Part shown: positions 12,173-52,939 of the stretch, in pieces | Numbering within the stretch: the first letter of the stretch is position 1 | How the letters are laid out: each line of letters starts with the position of its first letter | IMG/VR virus record: IMGVR_UViG_3300045988_073391 | Span: 1-54,717 of that record | Origin: a virus | Strand: one strand, 5' to 3' | DNA length: 54,717 nt | Notes under the pieces: generated by a model | What the model was told of the DNA's origin: nothing | Database searches by the model: none | The model's input: only the letters and a program-made list of their open reading frames with translations | Made by a program: the position numbers and the translations under genes

Positions 12173-15100
12173 ATGGAACTTTCATTTGAAATATTAGCAA
12201 ATTACGACCAGCTTGTCAAAATGCAGGGCAAGCTGGAGCAGTTCAAAAATGAGTACGACAGTGTTTGCAAGAAGCTGGCTACAGAAAATGTAGCTCCGTT
12301 ATTGATGCAGTCTATACAGAAAGATATAGACAACGTCAGCAATGGGATTAGTTCGTTGTCTGCCAAAATCATAGACGCTACAAAATCTATAAATGCCTCA
12401 TCATCGTCAGATTTACAATCGCTTAGTGGAAATGCGTCTGATGCGATTAGAGCAATAGGCTTGGCGGCAGACGAGCAAAAGACAAAGTTGAGCGATTTTT
12501 GGGGGTCTGTTGATGTGGTAAGGAATCAGATAGAAGGACTGAACGACAGTGCGTCAAGAATGTCTGGGGCTATTAACTCCATCAGTAATTTTTCAAGCAA
12601 GATGGAGGGCATAGGGCAACAAATAAGTTCGACAACTGACCCGCAGAAACTTGCATCTTACAATAATGAACTTAACAAATACTCCGAAGGCATCGCAGAA
12701 TGCGGCAGCAGATTGTCGGATTGGAATATAGTCGAAATAAACCATGCTAATATATCGGAGGAGGTAGCCCAAAAGCAGGCACAATTATCTTCAGTGATTG
12801 CAGACCAAACTGCTTATGTTGAAAATCTGAAACAGCAGGTTGCCATGCTCAATCAGCAATGGCTGGCAGCAAGTGGAACGGAGAAATTGAAGTTGTGGGA
12901 CGAAAAGACAGGGCGTGAAGATGTCTTGACAAAAGAAATCGCCAAACTTGACATGATGAAAGTCAAGGCAAACGAACTTTCTATTGCATTCAGTGCTGCT
13001 GATAGCACTGTAAGTAATGTTTCACAGAAGATGGGCGATGCCATTTCCACAATAGGGAACACTAAAATGGGAGATGGCATCAGACAAGGTTTTGAAGAGA
13101 TACATTCAAAGTGTGTTGTCGCGAGAGATTCCTTGAAGCAATATAATGAGGAGTTCGCTAATATTTCAAATCAGAGCGCAAGGATACTGCAACTGCGTGA
13201 TGCCATATCAAGTCTTGATGCTGAGGCCCAGTCTGGTGCGGTGGCCAAATTGGAGGCAGAGATGCGCTCATGCTCGCAATCAATAGACCAATCGTATGCG
13301 TCATTGGCAAAGATGCAGATAAACACGAAAGCGTTTGACAATGCAAGTGCAGCTGCTTCAAAGACCATATCAGACCTTGGGGAGAGCATTAAGACTCAAA
13401 CAGATGTTGTGGAGAGCCATCGTGCGGAGGTGCAGAGATTGCAACAAGCATATAGCGAAGCAACAGATAGCAACAAGGCATCTATACAATCGCAGTTGGA
13501 AACAGCGCAGCAGTCTCTCAAAGGCGAAGAAACTGCACTCACCACTATGCAGAACACACTGCATAGCGTCCGTGCTGATTATGAGCAAATGATGCAAGTC
13601 CGCAAAGCGGTAAACGATGGAATTGTGGCATCAGACCAAAAAGCTGCACAATCTCAGCAGGAGGTGCGGAAACAGACACAGCTATCATCAGAAGAAGCAA
13701 AGAAACAAAAAAAGGCAGTCCAAGACCTTGCCGGGACATGGAAGCAATTCCTTGGAACGATTGGCGTCGCTGCTGGTCTAAAGGCATTCATAACGCAGAT
13801 GATAGAAGTTAATGCGCGCATGGAGCAGATGAAGACATCTTTATATGGCATCATGCAAAGCAAATCGGCTGCCGACCAGTTATTTTCAAGCATAAAGGAC
13901 GTTTCTTCTCACTCGGCAATAGGGCTTGGCAGCCTTACTGGGGTGGCGCAGCAATTCGTGGCGTTTGGAGAAAGCGCATCGCGCATACCTAAGCTTTTGG
14001 AAGCTATGAATGAAGTTTCCATGGGCAGCGAGCAGAAATTCAACAGACTCGCGAGTTCATTGCAGATGATGGCCGCAATGGGTCAAGTGAATACACGCAC
14101 AATTCGCTCCATGATAACGGCAGGGTTCAATCCTCTCATATCCATATCAAGGAAAACGGGAGAAAGTATGTCAGACCTTATGAAAAAGGTCAAGAAAGGC
14201 ACTATCCCTGTAAGTGAAATCACAAACTCATTTATCTCAGCGACAGAAAAGGGCGGAATGTTCTATAAGATGAATGACAAGATGAGCGGTACATTGTCAT
14301 ATCAATTCGCTGTGATGAAGAAAAACGTGGCTGGCTTTTTCCTGGAGTTAGGCAAGGCCAACGATGGGACAATTCACAATGTCACGAATTTGATAGTCAC
14401 GTTGACAAAGCATCTAAAGGATTTTGCGGAGGCCGCGAAGATTGTCGTGACTTTTGCTGGCATCAAGACAGGCGCATATTTGGCAGGACAAGCCATAACT
14501 GCCATGTCCACAGCAATGAAAGTTGCAACGGGAGCCACAATCGGACTTAATACCGCAATGAAAGCAAGCGGTTGGGGTACTATAATATCTATTGCAGCAG
14601 CCGTAGGTGTCGCTATGTATGACTTTTATACAAGCACAAATGATGCTAACAGTGCGTTGTCTAATTACAATAAGACAGTTATTGATGCTACTGGCGATGC
14701 GGAAAGACTTTTTACAACCCTTGAAAACACAGATAAGACCACAAAGGTGCATCAAGACACGCTGAAGGAACTTGTTGATAAATATGAGGAATATGGCATA
14801 CATATAGACACGAGCAAGGGGCTATTGAACGATGAGGCAAATATAACACAACAGCTCATTGAGAAGAAGGGCATACTAATAGGGCTTATTCGGGAAGAGG
14901 CGTCTGAAAGAGCAAAGGCAGAACAATACAAGAAATTCCAAGATGAAAGAGATGAAACATATAAATCAGCGCAAGAAGACATTACAAGTAAGCTAAAATA
15001 CAAAGTCGCCACAATAGGAAAGAATGCTGGAAAGCAAATTTCTGAGGGTATGGCCCAAGGTCTTTCTATATCTATTCTTGAAGAAGTTAAGAGTGCTGTG

Positions 15101-36715: not shown

Positions 36716-36832
36716 AGTTGTATGTTATATTTATGTAATGCGTTGTTTACAAATACGTACATTACAGGTTAATAAATATTATTTTGGCGCATTTTCTTTA
36801 GCATATAGCTTTGTTTATGTAGCTATATGTTA

Positions 36833-36840: not shown

Positions 36841-36959
36841 CACTCGTAACGAAACAAGTAACGACAAATGTTTGCCACAAAGGTACAAACAAACTTGTTA
36901 TGTTGCAAGTGGTATTTGACTTATTGAACAAACAAAGAGAAGAGAACTCTATAAAACGA

Positions 36960-37030
36960 TGGCACATTAGGTAATGGCCGCAAGGTCAGGGCTTTGCAAT
37001 AGTGCTGGGGTTCGATGCCCCGTGTGCCAC
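36960..37030 (+). ncRNA. 71-nt degenerate tRNA-like element
   Basis: Acceptor TGGCACA pairs with TGTGCCA (7 bp). T arm is TGGGG/TTCGATG/CCCCG. The D and anticodon arms are not canonical. Confidence 0.4.
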
Positions 37031-37059
37031 TAATATTAACTAATAAAACCTTTAAGAAC

Positions 37060-37344
37060 ATGACAGACTTAGAAAATTACATTGTAGAGTGCATTATCAA
37101 AAGTGACGGTTATAATGACTGCTGCGACGGCTCTGTGTGGGTCGAATACGGCAGACTGACAATAGATTGCGACTACTCTATTGTTAGCGAGGGCTACTAC
37201 GATAATGATTACTACAACGGCACAGGCGCATTTGAAGAAACCTACTACAACTTCAGCATAGATGACTTAAAAGTCTATGACGAAGATGGCAAAGATGTAG
37301 TAGTGAATGTTGAAGCCATAGAGAAAGAACTAAACCAAAGATAA
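37060..37344 (+). CDS. Hypothetical acidic protein
   Basis: ATG at 37060 (MTDLENYIVE). The track start at 37015 lies inside the tRNA-like T arm. Confidence 0.5.
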   Translation: MTDLENYIVECIIKSDGYNDCCDGSVWVEYGRLTIDCDYSIVSEGYYDNDYYNGTGAFEETYYNFSIDDLKVYDEDGKDVVVNVEAIEKELNQR

Positions 37345-42622: not shown

Positions 42623-42828
42623 AACTATACCAGACACCGACAGAAAAGAAACGACAAAGGGAACATTCCAAGATATTCAGATTGTACTGCAAGCTGCAAG
42701 ACAGCACAGATTTGTCGAACAATCAGATATACAGCCACATTGCGTTTAAGCTTGGCTATTCGGTCAGCGGTGTGCGCAAAGTGGTCACACGCATCAAAAC
42801 CGAAAGACAATGTGCAATGGATGGATAA
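42619..42828 (+). CDS. Hypothetical protein
   Basis: ATGA coupling; 69 aa. Confidence 0.4.
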   Translation: MKLYQTPTEKKRQREHSKIFRLYCKLQDSTDLSNNQIYSHIAFKLGYSVSGVRKVVTRIKTERQCAMDG

Positions 42829-43655
42829 AGCTACACCGAAAAATTGTTGATTGGGAATGGTTCACTTGTTCTGCCACATTTCACCTGTTTATCTACCTGT
42901 TGTTAAAGGCAAGCAGAGAAGATAAACGGTGGAAAGGAATGGTTATAAAAAAGGGGCAGTTAGTCATATCAAGAGCTACGGCGTGCAAAGAAACTGGTCT
43001 AACAGCGCAACAATACCGCACCTCAATGGAAAGACTAAAATCAACCAACGAAATAACCAGCCAAACAACCAACAGATTTACACTCATAACTATCTGTAAA
43101 TACGAGAGTTACCAACTTACGGAAGATATAGAGCAACCAGCAAAACAACCAACGAAACAACCAGCAAACAACCAACGAGCAACCAACAAACAACCACATC
43201 TAAAGAATATAAGAAATAAAGAAAATAAGAATAACAAAGAATCTATACTCACTAACGTTCGTATAGATGAGAAAGCTACGGACGCTCCTGTCGTCGCTAC
43301 AACCACAACAGACGATATGGAACTTCGGAAAGAAAAATTTTATCAGTCTTTAGTGCCTTACGTCGCAAAGTATGGCAAGGACATGGTTCGGGCTTTCTAC
43401 GACTATTGGACGGAAAAAACGTATGGAGGACGAAAAATGCGGTTCGAGAAGCAACAAGCATTTGAAATCTCAAAACGTCTTGCCACATGGCAGAAACATG
43501 ATTTAAGCTATGCAAACAGAGATAACACAAGAATTGGTCAGTCGGGCAGCACTCGCGCAGAGCGAGATGCAGAGTTCCTTGCCCATGTCAGAGAAAAAAT
43601 GTCGCGCACTGACGAAGACGCAAGCGACATACCTTTTGCGCTACGCGACTGCTGA
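42810..43655 (+). CDS. Replication initiator / replisome organiser (winged-helix N-terminus)
   Basis: WIKLHRKIVDWEWF...GQLVISRATACKETGLTAQQYRTSMERLKS, with a low-complexity QPAKQPTKQPANNQ linker. Confidence 0.55.
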   Translation: MCNGWIKLHRKIVDWEWFTCSATFHLFIYLLLKASREDKRWKGMVIKKGQLVISRATACKETGLTAQQYRTSMERLKSTNEITSQTTNRFTLITICKYESYQLTEDIEQPAKQPTKQPANNQRATNKQPHLKNIRNKENKNNKESILTNVRIDEKATDAPVVATTTTDDMELRKEKFYQSLVPYVAKYGKDMVRAFYDYWTEKTYGGRKMRFEKQQAFEISKRLATWQKHDLSYANRDNTRIGQSGSTRAERDAEFLAHVREKMSRTDEDASDIPFALRDC

Positions 43656-47524: not shown

Positions 47525-47712
47525 CGGAAAAAGAAAAGATTAGAATGCTGCTCAAAATGCGCAACCAGATTGCGAGCATGGGCATGGACTACAAGTGCAG
47601 CTGCACATTCGTTGAAAACAGACTGACAGACCCGAATGTCGCAAAGACGTTTGATGCGCTGAGGGAGGCACTGGAAAATCAAATACGTAAACAATTCAAA
47701 TTTAACATTTAG
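47521..47712 (+). CDS. Hypothetical small protein
   Basis: ATGA coupling. Confidence 0.4.
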   Translation: MTEKEKIRMLLKMRNQIASMGMDYKCSCTFVENRLTDPNVAKTFDALREALENQIRKQFKFNI

Positions 47713-47716
47713 AGCT

Positions 47717-48031
47717 ATGACAACAACATTATACAATTACACACCCCACTCGATAACGCTTAACAGCGGAGAGAAGTATGACAGTGTCGGGGTGGCACGA
47801 GTTCAGAACACTTTCAGCGAGGTTGATGATAACGGCATTTGCTCGGTTGAATATGGCGACATAACGGGGCTTCCAGAACCTAAAGATGGCTGCACGTATA
47901 TCGTAAGCGCATTGGTACTTGCGGCAGCTAAGGCGGCTGGCAGAACGGATTGCGTTGCGCCTGCAACGGGCCACCCTGATTGTCTGCGCAAGGACGGGTT
48001 TATCGTTTCTGTTCCTTGCTTTGTGAGATAA
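47717..48031 (+). CDS. Hypothetical protein
   Basis: 104-aa ORF. Confidence 0.45.
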   Translation: MTTTLYNYTPHSITLNSGEKYDSVGVARVQNTFSEVDDNGICSVEYGDITGLPEPKDGCTYIVSALVLAAAKAAGRTDCVAPATGHPDCLRKDGFIVSVPCFVR

Positions 48032-48058
48032 CATTACTAACAACAAAAACCAAACAAT

Positions 48059-48742
48059 ATGCAAGTAGAAATAAGTGCAATGATTGAGGATTACGATATT
48101 CTCGCTTACGTGCCGACGCATAAACAGGCTAAAGTAATTGACAACATCTTCTATGAGTGTGCCGAAGAGAGTAGAAGAGAATTTATTCACGGTCTTGATG
48201 ATTCTTACCTCATAGAAGAATTAGAAGAAAGAGGTTTTACAATAACTAAAAAACGAACAACAATGGATAACAAAGTATTTGACTATCACGAAATCAAAAC
48301 CTTTGCAGATGCTTGTGAGAAGTTGGGCATGAAAGAACACCTACTTACTGGCAGTATGGGTGGAGATAGAGAAGCGCAAGGACAAGCGCAAGCACTTTAC
48401 AAGTTGCTGATTATCCAAAAGGCTATCAACAATGGCAAGTGGCGTGATGAAGAAGGCTGGAGCTTTTACCCTTACTGGGTGCTCTACTCTAAGGAAGAAA
48501 TGGAGCGCATGAGTGAGGAGGAGAAGCAGAGAAAGGGTATTAGACAGCTCCTCTCCTGTGCTGATGCGGATAGTACGGGGAGTGCGGGTGTCCGCTGTGC
48601 GTATGCGAGTAATCGTGGTGCGCATACGGTTACGAGTTTTGGTTTCCCCTTGTGCTTTAACAGCGAGGAAGCCGCCCTCTACGCCGCCCATCAGTTTGAA
48701 GATTTGTTCTTTCAGTACTACGGAATTAAAGTAAAAGCGTAA
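48059..48742 (+). CDS. Hypothetical protein
   Basis: 227-aa ORF. Confidence 0.5.
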   Translation: MQVEISAMIEDYDILAYVPTHKQAKVIDNIFYECAEESRREFIHGLDDSYLIEELEERGFTITKKRTTMDNKVFDYHEIKTFADACEKLGMKEHLLTGSMGGDREAQGQAQALYKLLIIQKAINNGKWRDEEGWSFYPYWVLYSKEEMERMSEEEKQRKGIRQLLSCADADSTGSAGVRCAYASNRGAHTVTSFGFPLCFNSEEAALYAAHQFEDLFFQYYGIKVKA

Positions 48743-48758
48743 CATAACTAAAAACAAT

Positions 48759-48995
48759 ATGGGAAAGAAGCAATACAACGAATGGATAAGCGTTAAGGAC
48801 GAGCTTCCAGAATATGAGGAGGTCGTGCTTGTGTGCAACGAAAAAGACCCTTGTGATGTTTGGTTTGCATCTCGTAGCAGCCTGCATGCACGTACCGATA
48901 TCAATGGCTTCGGTAAAAGTATTGAAGATGATGTAACTCATTGGACAAGAGTTAAACCATTAAACAAGAGACAATATGACACGAACAAAATTTAA
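48759..48995 (+). CDS. DUF551-like protein
   Basis: WISVKDELPEYEEVVLVC...THWTRVKPL. Confidence 0.55.
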   Translation: MGKKQYNEWISVKDELPEYEEVVLVCNEKDPCDVWFASRSSLHARTDINGFGKSIEDDVTHWTRVKPLNKRQYDTNKI

Positions 48996-49506
48996 GAAAA
49001 TTCCGTTTAACCTTGAACTTGCGAAGAAAATAATGAACAAGGAGGTAAAAGGAAGGATAGTATCAGAAGATGGTCGTAAGGTTCGCATTATTTACATCGA
49101 CAACGAGTCCTTTACTGAAACAACATTCCTCGCACTGTATAAGGATAAAGATTTTAATATAGAGAGAGACTACCGATTGAATAAAGATGGAAGATATTTC
49201 CGAGGAGAAAGAAGTGACCTTGACCTCCATATTGAAGTCCCAAAATACCGCGACTACTCCAACTTTGTTCCTCAAAGATGGCAGACTTGTTTGGTGAGAG
49301 ATTATTCTTTAGATATATGGAGAGTAGCAGTATGTAGCGGAAAAGATGCTTATGGTAGACCACTCTTTTACTCGGAAAGGAATACTCATGGCTGTTGCGG
49401 TTGGTATCATTATCTCCCACTTTCTAAGGTAACCGAGCGTCTGATTGGTATAAGCAAGAGCTACGAGCAGTTGATTAAAGAGCTTGACGGAAATGGGCAA
49501 GATTAA
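48976..49506 (+). CDS. Hypothetical protein
   Basis: 176-aa ORF. Confidence 0.5.
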   Translation: MTRTKFKKIPFNLELAKKIMNKEVKGRIVSEDGRKVRIIYIDNESFTETTFLALYKDKDFNIERDYRLNKDGRYFRGERSDLDLHIEVPKYRDYSNFVPQRWQTCLVRDYSLDIWRVAVCSGKDAYGRPLFYSERNTHGCCGWYHYLPLSKVTERLIGISKSYEQLIKELDGNGQD

Positions 49507-49663
49507 AGCATGTGACGGGCAAGGCTGCAAGGAGCGCAAGGCTTGCCTGCGATTTGCTCTGTCGCATACAGAGAGTGACAGACACAACATTCACAAGGCT
49601 TGCTATTTCGCAAGTCCGAACGGGCGAGACTGCCCGATAATGATTAAACAAAGAACAATATGA
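49493..49663 (+). CDS. 56-aa Cys-rich ORF (not in the ORF track)
   Basis: MGKIKACDGQGCKERKACLRFALSH...RDCPIMIKQRTI. Overlaps the upstream gene by 14 nt and is ATGA-coupled to the next gene. Confidence 0.4.
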   Translation: MGKIKACDGQGCKERKACLRFALSHTESDRHNIHKACYFASPNGRDCPIMIKQRTI

Positions 49664-49968
49664 AAGAGGACATGACTGCACTTGTGCTAAGACACATACC
49701 AGAACGTGTTCCGCGCACCAAAGCGGAGCTTGCCGACATCTATCTGACCGAGTCGAATAAAATTGAAACAGACCGCATGAAGTCGCGTGAGAGAAAACGT
49801 GACGATGACGAGGTGGTCAAGAGCCGCTACGACTCGCTGATTGCCGACAAGGAGGCACTACTCACCGAACTGCAAAACGAGATAGAGAAACTTAGACATG
49901 AGATGTCTGGGAAACTCTTATATGCCAGTTTGGAAGAGGAGCTCAGGAACCTGGAACTTGCCGACTGA
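49660..49968 (+). CDS. Hypothetical coiled-coil protein
   Basis: 102-aa ORF. Confidence 0.5.
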   Translation: MKEDMTALVLRHIPERVPRTKAELADIYLTESNKIETDRMKSRERKRDDDEVVKSRYDSLIADKEALLTELQNEIEKLRHEMSGKLLYASLEEELRNLELAD

Positions 49969-50059
49969 CGGAAGGTGCTTGATATGTGGTTTGAGACAAT
50001 GCGAAACAGAATAGAAAAAGAACAAGGAAACAGCAAATAACAAAAAAAACGAATAAATT

Positions 50060-50353
50060 ATGACGAAACTTTTTGTAGAAGAATTGAAGGATATGTATGC
50101 AGTGTTAGAAGATGCCATACAGAACTCTGACCACACGGATTTTGACCAGTGTTATTGGGCACTTGAAGAGTTGTGCAAGCACGCCCTGCACGGCTCAGAC
50201 AGATATGAGGGAGTGGCTTCTATTCGTGATTTTAGAAATATGGAAAAAAGAGACATGAATTATGTGCAGGGACTCATGAGCAAGGAGCAGGAGAAAGCTT
50301 ACCTTGATGATGAGTGGGAACGCCTAACTGGTAAAGAGGAGGGTAAGGAATGA
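50060..50353 (+). CDS. Hypothetical protein
   Basis: 97-aa ORF. Confidence 0.5.
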   Translation: MTKLFVEELKDMYAVLEDAIQNSDHTDFDQCYWALEELCKHALHGSDRYEGVASIRDFRNMEKRDMNYVQGLMSKEQEKAYLDDEWERLTGKEEGKE

Positions 50354-50541
50354 TAGCGATGATTTTTGCCGCTGTGGCGTTTATCTGTGGTATGTTCGTT
50401 GCTTACCTTGCAGGCAAGGATATTGGCAGAGAGAACGGATATTATGAGGGCCGCAGCGAGGCTCGCAGAGACCTTGAACACATTGTTGAACACTACAAAA
50501 AAATGGCTTATGCAAAGGACACTCCAACAGAGGGCGCGTGA
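50350..50541 (+). CDS. Small N-terminal-TM protein
   Basis: ATGA coupling. Starts MIAMIFAAVAFICGMFVAYLAG. Confidence 0.45.
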   Translation: MIAMIFAAVAFICGMFVAYLAGKDIGRENGYYEGRSEARRDLEHIVEHYKKMAYAKDTPTEGA

Positions 50542-50662
50542 GGCTGCCGACCGCATTCGCTGTGACGAGTGTGGCGAGCAAAGCACTTGTACGCCACTTA
50601 TGGCGAAAGCCTGTCTTAAAGGTTTTATTCGCGGTTATGTTGCCGCTAATTCTAAAAATTGA
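50510..50662 (+). CDS. 50-aa Cys-containing ORF (tentative)
   Basis: ATG at 50510 in the frame of track ORF 50366-50662. The tail AADRIRCDECGEQSTCTPLMAKACLKGFIRGY looks protein-like. Confidence 0.3.
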   Translation: MQRTLQQRAREAADRIRCDECGEQSTCTPLMAKACLKGFIRGYVAANSKN

Positions 50663-50667
50663 CAAAA

Positions 50668-50763
50668 ATGAAACTACTGATAGTAATAGCACTAATGTTG
50701 TTCGTTTACTGGCTCTGGAAGGACATCAACCGTCATGACGGACCACCGATTGCGAGCAACTAA
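50668..50763 (+). CDS. 31-aa hydrophobic ORF (tentative)
   Basis: MKLLIVIALMLFVYWLWKDINRHDGPPIASN. Confidence 0.3.
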   Translation: MKLLIVIALMLFVYWLWKDINRHDGPPIASN

Positions 50764-50773
50764 TTAGCAACAT

Positions 50774-50891
50774 ACCCCACTTACCAACCTCATATTTTAT
50801 TTACTTCATAAATATAAATGGTTTTGTTTAGTTGGATTGTTTTTAATTGCCCGAGGTCTGGTAACACTCGGTCCGTGTCCGAGGTGGGGTA
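50774..50891 (+). ncRNA. Structured tRNA-like element, unit A
   Basis: Acceptor-like ACCCCAC (50774-50780) pairs with GTGGGGT (50884-50890). Bipartite helix ACCA-CCTC (50783-50791) pairs with GAGG-TGGT (50853-50862). T-arm-like CTCGG/TCCGTGT/CCGAG (50867-50883). Confidence 0.5.
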
Positions 50892-50897
50892 CTTATA

Positions 50898-51001
50898 AGC
50901 CCTCTCTGCAACGCCACAATTTTATTTACTTAATACTAAAGGATTGATTTTTAATGGTGCAGTGGTGTCGGCAGCACGTGGTTCGTGGCCACGGAGGGCG
51001 C
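50898..51001 (+). ncRNA. Structured tRNA-like element, unit B
   Basis: GCCCTC (50899-50904) pairs with GAGGGC (50994-50999). CTGC-CGCCAC (50906-50917) pairs with GTGGTG-GCAG (50962-50974). CGTGG/TTCGTGG/CCACG (50977-50993). The AT-rich interior is shared with unit A. Confidence 0.5.
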
Positions 51002-51020
51002 AATTTTAATGAGAAATAAT

Positions 51021-51185
51021 ATGACTACAAAACAAGTTATTCACGCCCTGCACCTGCACCAGAAATGGCGCAGAGGGGCAATTAGCGAGATGCCTCTGAC
51101 GGCAAAGGAATATGGTGAAACCTTGGACGAGGCAATAAGACTATTACGGCAATATGACAAACAGCAAGACGGGGCAGTGCGGTGA
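51021..51185 (+). CDS. Hypothetical small protein
   Basis: ATG at 51021 (MTTKQVIHALHLHQKWRRG). Confidence 0.4.
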   Translation: MTTKQVIHALHLHQKWRRGAISEMPLTAKEYGETLDEAIRLLRQYDKQQDGAVR

Positions 51186-51306
51186 GTGCCTGAGGTTCGC
51201 CAAGGGCAGATGCCCGAAATTCTTTTCCAACTCTGTGCGGACAGCGTGTAATGGCTTCACACAGAGCAAATCAGTAACTAAAAATACACACTTCGATAAA
51301 GTATAA
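51154..51306 (+). CDS. 50-aa Cys-rich ORF (not in the ORF track)
   Basis: MTNSKTGQCGECLRFAKGRCPKFFSNSVRTACNGF... Shares the CLRFA core with ORF 49493-49663. Confidence 0.35.
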   Translation: MTNSKTGQCGECLRFAKGRCPKFFSNSVRTACNGFTQSKSVTKNTHFDKV

Positions 51307-51311
51307 ACATT

Positions 51312-51671
51312 ATGACATTCGACGAATACCAAGAACTTGCAATGACTTTCTGCACAAAGGAGAGTAACAATTTACCATACATGATACTCGGCCTTAACGA
51401 GGAAGTAGGAGAACTGACAGGAAAGCTTGCAAAAGCAGTGCGCAAGGGACTGCTAAAACCTGACCTTACCTTTGACGAGGACAACGTGAGTGAAGAACAT
51501 TTTGAACTCATGGACAACATTACAAAGGAATGTGGCGATGTACTATGGATGCTCGCTGGGGTACACTCCGTTCTTAACAAACGGCTCGAAACTACTGCGC
51601 ATCTGAATATACACAAACTTACAAGCCGCAAAAAACGAGGCGTTATCGTCGGGGATGGCGACAACAGATGA
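51312..51671 (+). CDS. mazG: MazG-like nucleotide pyrophosphohydrolase
   Basis: LGLNEEVGELTGKLAK and ECGDVLWMLAGV. Confidence 0.8.
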   Translation: MTFDEYQELAMTFCTKESNNLPYMILGLNEEVGELTGKLAKAVRKGLLKPDLTFDEDNVSEEHFELMDNITKECGDVLWMLAGVHSVLNKRLETTAHLNIHKLTSRKKRGVIVGDGDNR

Positions 51672-52753: not shown

Positions 52754-52761
52754 TACCTTTG
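52754..52761 (+). promoter_or_regulatory. TAnnTTTG box upstream of the tRNA
   Basis: TACCTTTG, 95 nt before the tRNA 5' end. Confidence 0.45.
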
Positions 52762-52855
52762 CAAACGGTTGAAAACCTTACAAACCTATTAGTAACAATA
52801 AGGTGAAGAATCAATTTGTTGATGAATTGCGAATGTTCTATTTTTGTGTCTATAT

Positions 52856-52927
52856 CGCAGGGTAGAGCAGTGGTAGCTCGTCAGTCTGACTTACTGAAAG
52901 TCGCAAGTTCGATTCTTGCCCCTGCAA
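52856..52927 (+). tRNA. tRNA, anticodon GAC by manual fold (Val), with an initiator-like acceptor end
   Basis: Manual fold: CGCAGGG-TA-GAGC-AGTGGTA-GCTC-G-TCAGT-CTGACTT-ACTGA-AAGTC-GCAAG-TTCGATT-CTTGC-CCCTGCA-A. All four arms are canonical. C1 lies opposite A72, T is at position 37, and CCA is not encoded. Confidence 0.75.
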
Positions 52928-52939
52928 CAACTTACAACA

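Follow-up and report, generated by a model that had tools for sequence, protein, structure and literature searches.

Small stable RNAs encoded by phages and matured by tRNA-processing enzymes include T4 species 1 and 2 (rnaC/rnaD) and the M3 RNA of phi80, which lie near tRNA genes; we know of no Rfam family for either. In C4 RNA, the loops are the functional part. Bacteroides lacks Hfq and rarely uses Shine-Dalgarno sequences, which is part of the reason why small-RNA biology is poorly charted there and in its phages. The C4 precursor, a phage regulatory RNA with paired ends, is a substrate of bacterial RNase P (PMC4919922). In plant mitochondria, the tRNA-shaped t-elements take part in forming the 5' and 3' ends of mRNAs (PMC1920247).

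Here we analysed a locus in a 54,717-nt stretch of viral DNA (IMG/VR record IMGVR_UViG_3300045988_073391, hereafter the window). The gap between two small ORFs, at 50659-50763 and 51021-51185, was found to hold two adjoining elements, units A and B. A preliminary sequence-only reading had put this ORF-free gap at 280 bp; its actual length is 257 bp (50764-51020). The features of the locus are as follows.

50659-50763, plus strand: upstream neighbour, a small ORF with a seemingly membrane-spanning product (MKLLIVIALMLFVYWLWKDINRHDGPPIASN); its stop lies 10 nt before unit A.
50774-50890, plus strand: unit A, a complete three-way-junction element of 117 nt (minimum-free-energy (MFE) fold; covariance model, 150 bits; 52 related contigs).
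50774-50780, plus strand: 5' strand of unit A helix P1 (ACCCCAC), pairing with GTGGGGT at 50884-50890; two of its pairs covary with unit B.
50782-50791, plus strand: 5' strand of unit A helix P2 (T-ACCA-ACCTC), pairing with 50853-50863, where C50858 is bulged.
50792-50852, plus strand: AU-rich terminal loop of unit A, 61 nt, holding block 1 (50794-50810) and block 2 (50834-50849); repeat families D3 and D4.
50867-50883, plus strand: unit A hairpin P3 (CTCGG-TCCGTGT-CCGAG), directly adjoining the 3' strand of P1.
50891-50898, plus strand: spacer between A and B, in relatives the exact insertion point of a minus-strand accessory gene or its remnant.
50899-50999, plus strand: unit B, a paralogous three-way-junction element of 101 nt (found by the A-only model, the fold and pair counts).
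Helices of unit B: P1, 50899-50904 with 50994-50999; P2, 50906-50917 with 50962-50974; loop, 50918-50961; P3, 50977-50993.
51021-51185, plus strand: downstream neighbour, a 54-aa ORF whose start lies 21 nt after unit B.

In both units, a closing helix P1 (7 bp in A, 6 bp in B) is followed by 1-2 linker bases and by P2, a long helix carrying on top an AU-rich (U-rich) loop of 61 nt in A and 44 nt in B; after 2-4 further linker bases comes P3, a 5-bp stem with a 7-nt loop. All the helices listed in the sequence-only reading were recovered in place. Folded alone, each unit formed a three-way junction (MFE of -33.8 kcal/mol for A and -35.3 kcal/mol for B, with fold z-scores of -2.7 and -2.6, respectively), and the entire 257-nt gap separated into two independent modules in both the minimum-energy and the centroid structures. 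As P3 runs without a linker into the 3' strand of P1, the secondary structure indicates that stacking of the two helices would be possible. The long helix of unit A had to be redrawn in one detail: the pairing is present, and its form in the window is ACCAACCTC/GAGGT-c-TGGT. At this P2 site, the T of the window is a G in 49 of the 52 unit A copies (alignment A5), which gives most relatives an internal loop with A opposite CG, the same as in unit B.

We then compared the two units with each other. A covariance model built from A orthologues only detected unit B with 48 bits (E=1e-8) and had no other match in the 54.7 kb on both strands; likewise, a model built from A and B and run with filters off returned these two units as the sole matches in the window. 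In a structure-aware alignment (A4), 9 of the 21 pairs are altered on both sides between the A type and the B type with pairing intact. Standard pairs occupy 92.5% of cells, against 39-45% after sliding the partners by 1-3 columns, and the covariation score was 0.414 compared to 0.151 for shuffled data, with none of 500 shuffles attaining the observed value. Using the same alignment, RNAalifold arrived independently at the same three helices (covariation term, -4.57) and added one covarying pair at the base of P2, U-A in A and C-G in B.

The junction bases are common to A and B, as is the P2 internal loop, in which an A lies opposite CG between invariant C-G and A-U pairs. In P3 the first pair, the top two pairs and most of the loop (UYCGUGN) agree, and P1 has four C-G pairs in common; covariation is seen in the pairs surrounding these features. 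Two interior blocks also match between the units (50794-50810 with 50919-50935, and 50834-50849 with 50941-50956), with a block-to-block spacing that differs by 18 nt. The proposal that A and B are homologous structured elements with compensatory helix changes is thus borne out by the A-only model, the pair counts and RNAalifold. The stronger statement that all three helices differ was an overstatement, because about half of the pairs are identical between A and B, next to the nine that changed on both sides. A and B are diverged copies of one conserved three-helix fold.

The locus was recovered in 30 IMG/VR contigs, all from metagenome 3300045988, using flanking proteins and DNA patterns. A metagenome scan contributed 24 more contigs, mostly bearing the name of a human-gut metagenome assembly or a similar ENA label. 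The 54 contigs all derive from human-gut metagenomes, and across them the units are 88-99% identical. Beyond them, one contig (L190) carries a shortened unit A (12582-12671), in which a 28-nt deletion between direct CCGAGGT repeats has removed the 3' strand of P2 together with P3; an intact unit B lies beside it. A 1.4-kb query around the units found no match in GenBank phage DNA, and three IMG/VR scans with DNA patterns returned the same lineage only, plus one chance match (L130). One metagenome scan and one GTDB scan (one genome per GTDB species) were filtered with the A+B model: the matches outside the lineage all scored below 30 bits, mostly in G+C-rich DNA, and no matching record of the GTDB species-genome scan was named as Bacteroidota. 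Bacteroides phage BS-TP2, the isolate with the most similar large terminase (75% identity), lacks the units in its first 32 kb, a stretch that includes the equivalent early/accessory region. More distant relatives, reached through the PAPS-reductase gene, had no units in 78 loci (923 kb), and loci reached through the methyltransferase gene belonged to the same lineage only, except for one weak 38% match.

The absence of the units from the first 32 kb of BS-TP2, from the 78 distant loci and from records named as Bacteroidota in the GTDB scan indicates that the family is confined to one narrow phage lineage. Since there is one such lineage, every double compensatory change stems from the single comparison of A with B, and the structural case rests on that paralogue comparison together with population-level constraint. 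As for the host, no Shine-Dalgarno motif was seen before the starts read in the window, and canonical Bacteroidetes promoter motifs (TTTG ... TAnnTTTG) are present, for example ahead of a tRNA-Val gene. Judged from these sequence features, the host is very probably a gut Bacteroidota.

We next considered how the units vary among orthologues, with diversity figures calculated for the window and 30 contigs. Nucleotide diversity (pi) in the helices was 0.017 for A and 0.035 for B, compared to 0.11-0.18 at third codon positions of three flanking ORFs, making the helices about 5-10 times less variable than these positions. The AU-rich loops, with pi of 0.063-0.095, were the most variable part of the units, and the junction bases of unit A were invariant. 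Hence, helices and junction are under purifying selection and the interior is the loosest part. This reverses the earlier view of a conserved interior with helices free to change: two interior blocks do match between A and B, but among orthologues it is the interior that varies most and the helices that are held most tightly.

The AU-rich interior contains 1-3-nt indels within T runs among orthologues. The sequence-only reading had judged the region unlikely to be coding and had described the open frame in unit A as lacking a start codon. A 26-codon frame starting with ATG does in fact cross unit A (50818-50898), and 1-nt indels disrupt it in most relatives. Because such indels break every frame through the units, the element is not coding, in line with the original judgement. 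Homologous regions were also examined for preservation of the pairings, a check suggested at the outset. The helices are strongly constrained; no double compensatory changes were found within orthologues, as expected at about 95% identity, and nine rare variants disrupt a pair.

We give a probability of about one half to the reading that A and B are paralogous structured non-coding RNAs, made from the plus strand as part of a long rightward early/accessory transcript of a temperate Bacteroides-type siphophage. They plausibly form a new RNA family of narrow distribution.

The main rival is a role in cis, in processing or stability of the message. Here the units would be punctuation elements, acting as tRNA-like processing signals or exonuclease blocks that set the 3' terminus of the message before them and the 5' terminus of the message after them. 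We regard this as possible but unlikely. It can call on the same structural evidence (the A-only model, covariation and RNAalifold), on the position of the units, with A starting 10 nt past a stop codon and B ending 21 nt before a start codon, on the loose constraint on the loop sequence, and on the precedent of the plant mitochondrial t-elements (PMC1920247). The tandem copies, the conserved loop blocks and the junction core, however, exceed what an end-protecting hairpin needs, and the behaviour of the slot in relatives also speaks against it.

The small membrane-type ORF lies upstream of A in every relative carrying the locus. Homologues of the 54-aa ORF, which has no Pfam or PHROG match, also occur without units: in four contigs (L111 and L113-L115; 2199-2459), an 86-aa ORF sits exactly at the A/B slot, with a 54-aa ORF 68-73% identical to that of the window. 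Since homologues of both flanking ORFs are found with the 86-aa gene where the units would be, the flanking ORFs can do without A and B. A guess that the 86-aa ORF (L111) is DUF4406-like was left unconfirmed, with no Pfam match.

Measured between alignment ends, A and B are 7 nt apart in 24 of the 54 contigs; the distance rises to 108-114 nt in 10 others and to 388-428 nt in the remaining 20, so that 30 contigs have an insertion exactly in the spacer, with both units left intact. In 20 contigs (L005 and L087 included) the insert is a gene on the minus strand, about 44 aa long (MKSNRNQKENGVVRVFCKYITKNG...), that brings a TAnnTTTG motif of its own (TACTTTTG), a hairpin-rich leader and a terminator; its product has a weak, below-threshold Pfam similarity to Paratox. 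The 10 contigs with 108-114 nt retain a remnant consisting of the insert promoter and leader alone. On a larger scale, a module of ~655 bp (about 50541-51195) is missing from three close relatives (L012, L013 and L015). It runs from the 3' part of one small CxxC ORF to the 5' part of another, with the membrane-type ORF, both units and the 54-aa ORF lying in between, and its junction falls at a TGAGG shared by the paralogous CxxC ORFs 50510-50662 and 51154-51306. The location of this junction inside both ORFs indicates recombination between the paralogues. The slot of A and B behaves like an accessory-gene position. Considering slot exchange and the spacer insertions together, A and B behave as separate gene-like modules and not as a leader that the downstream ORF requires. 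No obvious RNA partner is suggested by the nearby genes (MazG-like, DNA methyltransferase, ASCH and PAPS reductase). The flanking genes are all on the plus strand.

The same comparisons bear on the improbable reading in which the element works as DNA, either as single-stranded hairpins or as a duplex protein site, and serves as a replication/priming signal or as a boundary for accessory-gene exchange. Watson-Crick compensation is strand-symmetric and would preserve DNA hairpins equally well; moreover, the A-B spacer has been used repeatedly for insertion, the ~655-bp module is present or absent between paralogous CxxC ORFs, and one contig has the 28-nt deletion between direct CCGAGGT repeats in unit A. 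The one-sided changes, however, lean towards one strand. Variants that pair as G-U only on the plus strand formed 11 classes in 33 sequences, some of them present in 6/57 and 11/57, and these would be A-C mismatches on the minus strand; the reverse case, G-U only on the minus strand, amounted to 5 classes in 7 sequences. By class count (11/16, one-sided binomial about 0.1) this bias is suggestive, and it agrees with the orientation of the flanking genes. Unit B also has a near-fixed G-U pair, present in 52 of the 57 rows assigned to B (two of these rows being unit A copies); two rare variants convert it to A-U or G-C. An enrichment of G-T-compatible changes on one strand argues against a DNA-level role, G-U pairs being a typical feature of RNA, and the conserved unpaired junction, internal loop and hairpin loop indicate a folded single strand and not duplex recognition. 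In addition, the units lie about 7 kb from the putative replication initiator (42810-43655, named from reading its sequence) and far from the terminase end, and Pfam and PHROG searches of the neighbours revealed no adjoining recombinase gene.

We also looked for transcription signals, taking TAnnTTTG (-7) with TTTG (-33) as the Bacteroidetes sigma-A promoter. The -7 motif is absent from both strands of 47704-51467, no sigma-70-type site was found at the units (50764-51020), and no terminator-like site follows them in 49.5-53.2 kb. Another reading is a cis-acting transcription-control RNA, such as a processive antiterminator like put of HK022, that would let RNA polymerase read through to downstream or late genes; we hold this reading to be quite improbable. 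A pair of copies that are equivalent in structure, have diverged helices and lie within a long operon would suit it, all the more as putL and putR are also two copies more alike in structure than in sequence; the units lie about 4 kb upstream of the window end, and the structural genes begin at the window start. Yet put consists of two adjacent stem-loops without a closing helix, an architecture unlike that of the units, which moreover are about 14 kb from the early promoter motifs (about 36.8 kb) instead of just past a promoter and have no terminator-like site after them. That three relatives (L012, L013 and L015) do without the module and others have a protein gene in the slot shows the units to be dispensable, again contrary to antitermination.

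Very unlikely, too, is that the AT-rich interiors are duplicated promoters or operators with incidental inverted repeats, the outcome named in advance as one that would undo the structural reading. Two AT-rich blocks are indeed common to A and B, and B lies just upstream of an ORF. On the other hand, neither TAnnTTTG nor a sigma-70-type site occurs on either strand of 50764-51020, no gene follows unit A, the blocks recur in the window at chance level, and their spacing differs by 18 nt between A and B. In addition, it is the helices that are constrained and covary, and the interior is the least constrained part.

The sequence-only reading had likened the ends of the units to the acceptor and T arms of tRNA or tmRNA. 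The geometry of that comparison stands: a closing helix of 6-7 bp runs into a 5-bp stem with a 7-nt loop. Set against a 7-bp acceptor and a 5-bp T stem joined without a linker (12-bp stack), unit A has 7+5 bp and unit B 6+5 bp, with a G-C closing pair of the G53-C61 type. What did not hold up is the remainder, since A58, the D and anticodon arms, G3-U70 and a tag frame are all lacking. The P3 loop is UCCGUGU in 47 of 52 A copies and UUCGUGG in 50 of 57 B copies, differing from the T-loop form UUCRANY (U54, A58); loop position 58 is U in all listed variants of both units, and it is at this position alone that the unit B loop departs from the UUCGANN consensus. With A58 missing, a true T-loop fold, and hence efficient RNase P recognition, is uncertain.

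A cmscan of 50600-51150 gave no match to tRNA (RF00005) even at E<=10, a family whose members have a cloverleaf with D and anticodon arms and score at least 29 bits. The only tRNA match at the gathering threshold in the window is a tRNA-Val at 52856. ARAGORN found no tRNA in the units by default or with introns allowed; with a lowered threshold its tRNA calls did not match the unit boundaries, and its tmRNA mode made no call even then. Similarly, the tmRNA model (RF00023) had no match, position 3 is C-G in both units and not G3-U70, and the 1-nt interior indels shift the frames, leaving no conserved tmRNA tag frame. The phage's own tRNA-Val also has no encoded CCA, so the absence of CCA from the units is uninformative. 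The reading of the units as tRNA or tmRNA genes, whether degenerate or unusual, is therefore the least credible: in its favour are an acceptor-like helix stacked on a G-C-closed 5-bp/7-nt stem and a B loop near UUCGANN, and against it stand the lack of any tRNA, tmRNA or tRNA-like Rfam match at E<=10, the negative default ARAGORN result, the missing D/anticodon arms, G3-U70 and conserved reading frame and, with regard to decaying tRNA pseudogenes, purifying selection and compensatory change.

Other tRNA-like and early-region features were seen in the window. The tRNA-Val(GAC) is canonical (52754-52928, plus strand, 59.5 bits), lies 1.9 kb downstream of the units and has its own Bacteroidetes-type promoter motif, TTTG ... 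TACCTTTG, at 52754-52761; in BS-TP2, too, a tRNA-Val precedes the ASCH gene, in the corresponding position. At 36960-37030 on the plus strand, ARAGORN made a 'tRNA-???' call with a four-base anticodon. On reading the sequence, this element combines a 7-bp acceptor helix with a canonical T arm (UGGGG-UUCGAUG-CCCCG) but lacks a proper D stem; it does not reach the Rfam tRNA threshold, its sole match at E<=10 being the weak one to the tRNA-like mascRNA model. It lies in the repressor/early region, about 120 nt past the TAnnTTTG motifs at 36806 and 36833, and overlaps the start of the ORF at 37015-37344. Just before it, in the early leader, 36911-36957 has a very weak match to the Rfam DUF2693 RNA motif (10.7 bits, E=8), which is probably due to chance; the first rightward early gene of BS-TP2 is annotated with a DUF2693 structural match.

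As for other known RNAs, no family in Rfam 15 matched the units at gathering thresholds and none of relevance did so at E<=10, in agreement with the initial impression that no named family could be recognised. The only Rfam match overlapping them, a below-threshold C. elegans sRNA on the minus strand, was taken as chance. The known self-cleaving ribozymes among the Rfam 15 models gave no match, nor did C4 antisense RNA (RF01695) at E<=10. The best sites complementary to the loop blocks within the window were no better than those of shuffled blocks, which speaks against the units being antisense regulators of a target within this phage. A conserved switch pairing was rejected on inspection, because the topology of the internal repeats differs between A and B, and integron attC core sites (RYYYAAC/GTTRRRY) were absent on reading of the sequence. 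Type III toxin-antitoxin loci have tandem repeats of 34-45 nt followed by a ToxN-type endoribonuclease gene of about 170 aa. A ToxI-like repeat array was discarded as well: the units are 101-117 nt long, and the downstream ORF encodes 54 aa, has no Pfam or PHROG match and occurs without units.

We return to the preferred reading of A and B as paralogous structured non-coding RNAs. Given the lack of a promoter motif in or just before the units, combined with their acceptor/T-type end stack, excision would be the most straightforward way of producing a separate RNA, and the units are probably cut out by tRNA maturation enzymes. By analogy with C4 RNA of P1/P7, the units would be excised from a polycistronic RNA by the tRNA maturation machinery, RNase P cutting the 5' end and RNase Z or exonucleases the 3' end. 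Once freed, the stable RNAs could use the U-rich loop and the conserved junction core to act in trans, a combination that suggests binding of a protein or of an A-rich host RNA; the action would consist of pairing with such an RNA or of binding or titrating the protein. Precise antisense pairing is disfavoured by the loop being the least constrained part among orthologues. The compensatory divergence of the A and B helices would keep adjacent co-transcribed copies from mispairing or recombining. Taken further, the units may represent an undescribed class of tRNA-shaped phage RNAs, excised by host enzymes, in which a U-rich loop on a junction scaffold captures a host factor and the pair is retained as two copies whose helices are not interchangeable; we put this forward tentatively, as a doubtful extension. 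The captured factor could be, for example, a protein that binds single-stranded RNA, a defence enzyme directed at tRNA or an A-rich mRNA leader.

A selected pair of RNAs in a common temperate phage lineage of the human gut would offer a new handle on host manipulation. The units are small and sharply delimited, and natural variants (the 28-nt deletion, the protein-filled slot and the insertions between units) should ease experiments.

Compared with known systems, the units share with tRNA (RF00005) the terminal helix running into a stem of 5 bp with a 7-nt loop, the linker of 1-2 nt after the 5' strand and the lack of an encoded CCA; where the D and anticodon arms would be, they instead carry a long helix with a 44-61-nt loop. 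The tRNA-like domain of tmRNA, including the reduced mitochondrial tmRNA, resembles them in that its ends are paired, it carries a T-arm-like hairpin and a long helix connects it to a large interior, but tmRNA is about 350 nt long, against 101-117 nt, and no pseudoknots are predicted in the units. The plant mitochondrial t-elements are likewise tRNA-shaped structures between genes; they belong to another domain of life, and an end-processing role would leave the conserved loop blocks of the units unexplained. T4 species 1 and 2 and phi80 M3 RNA differ from the units in host and architecture. C4 RNA of P1/P7 (RF01695) and the CI RNA of P4 are, like the proposed RNAs of the units, small phage RNAs with paired ends embedded in an operon transcript, whereas the loops of the units are far larger and U-rich and their location is an accessory slot and not the immunity region. 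If tRNA-like ends do direct processing by RNase P and RNase Z here, the C4-type mechanism would extend to phages of Bacteroidota.
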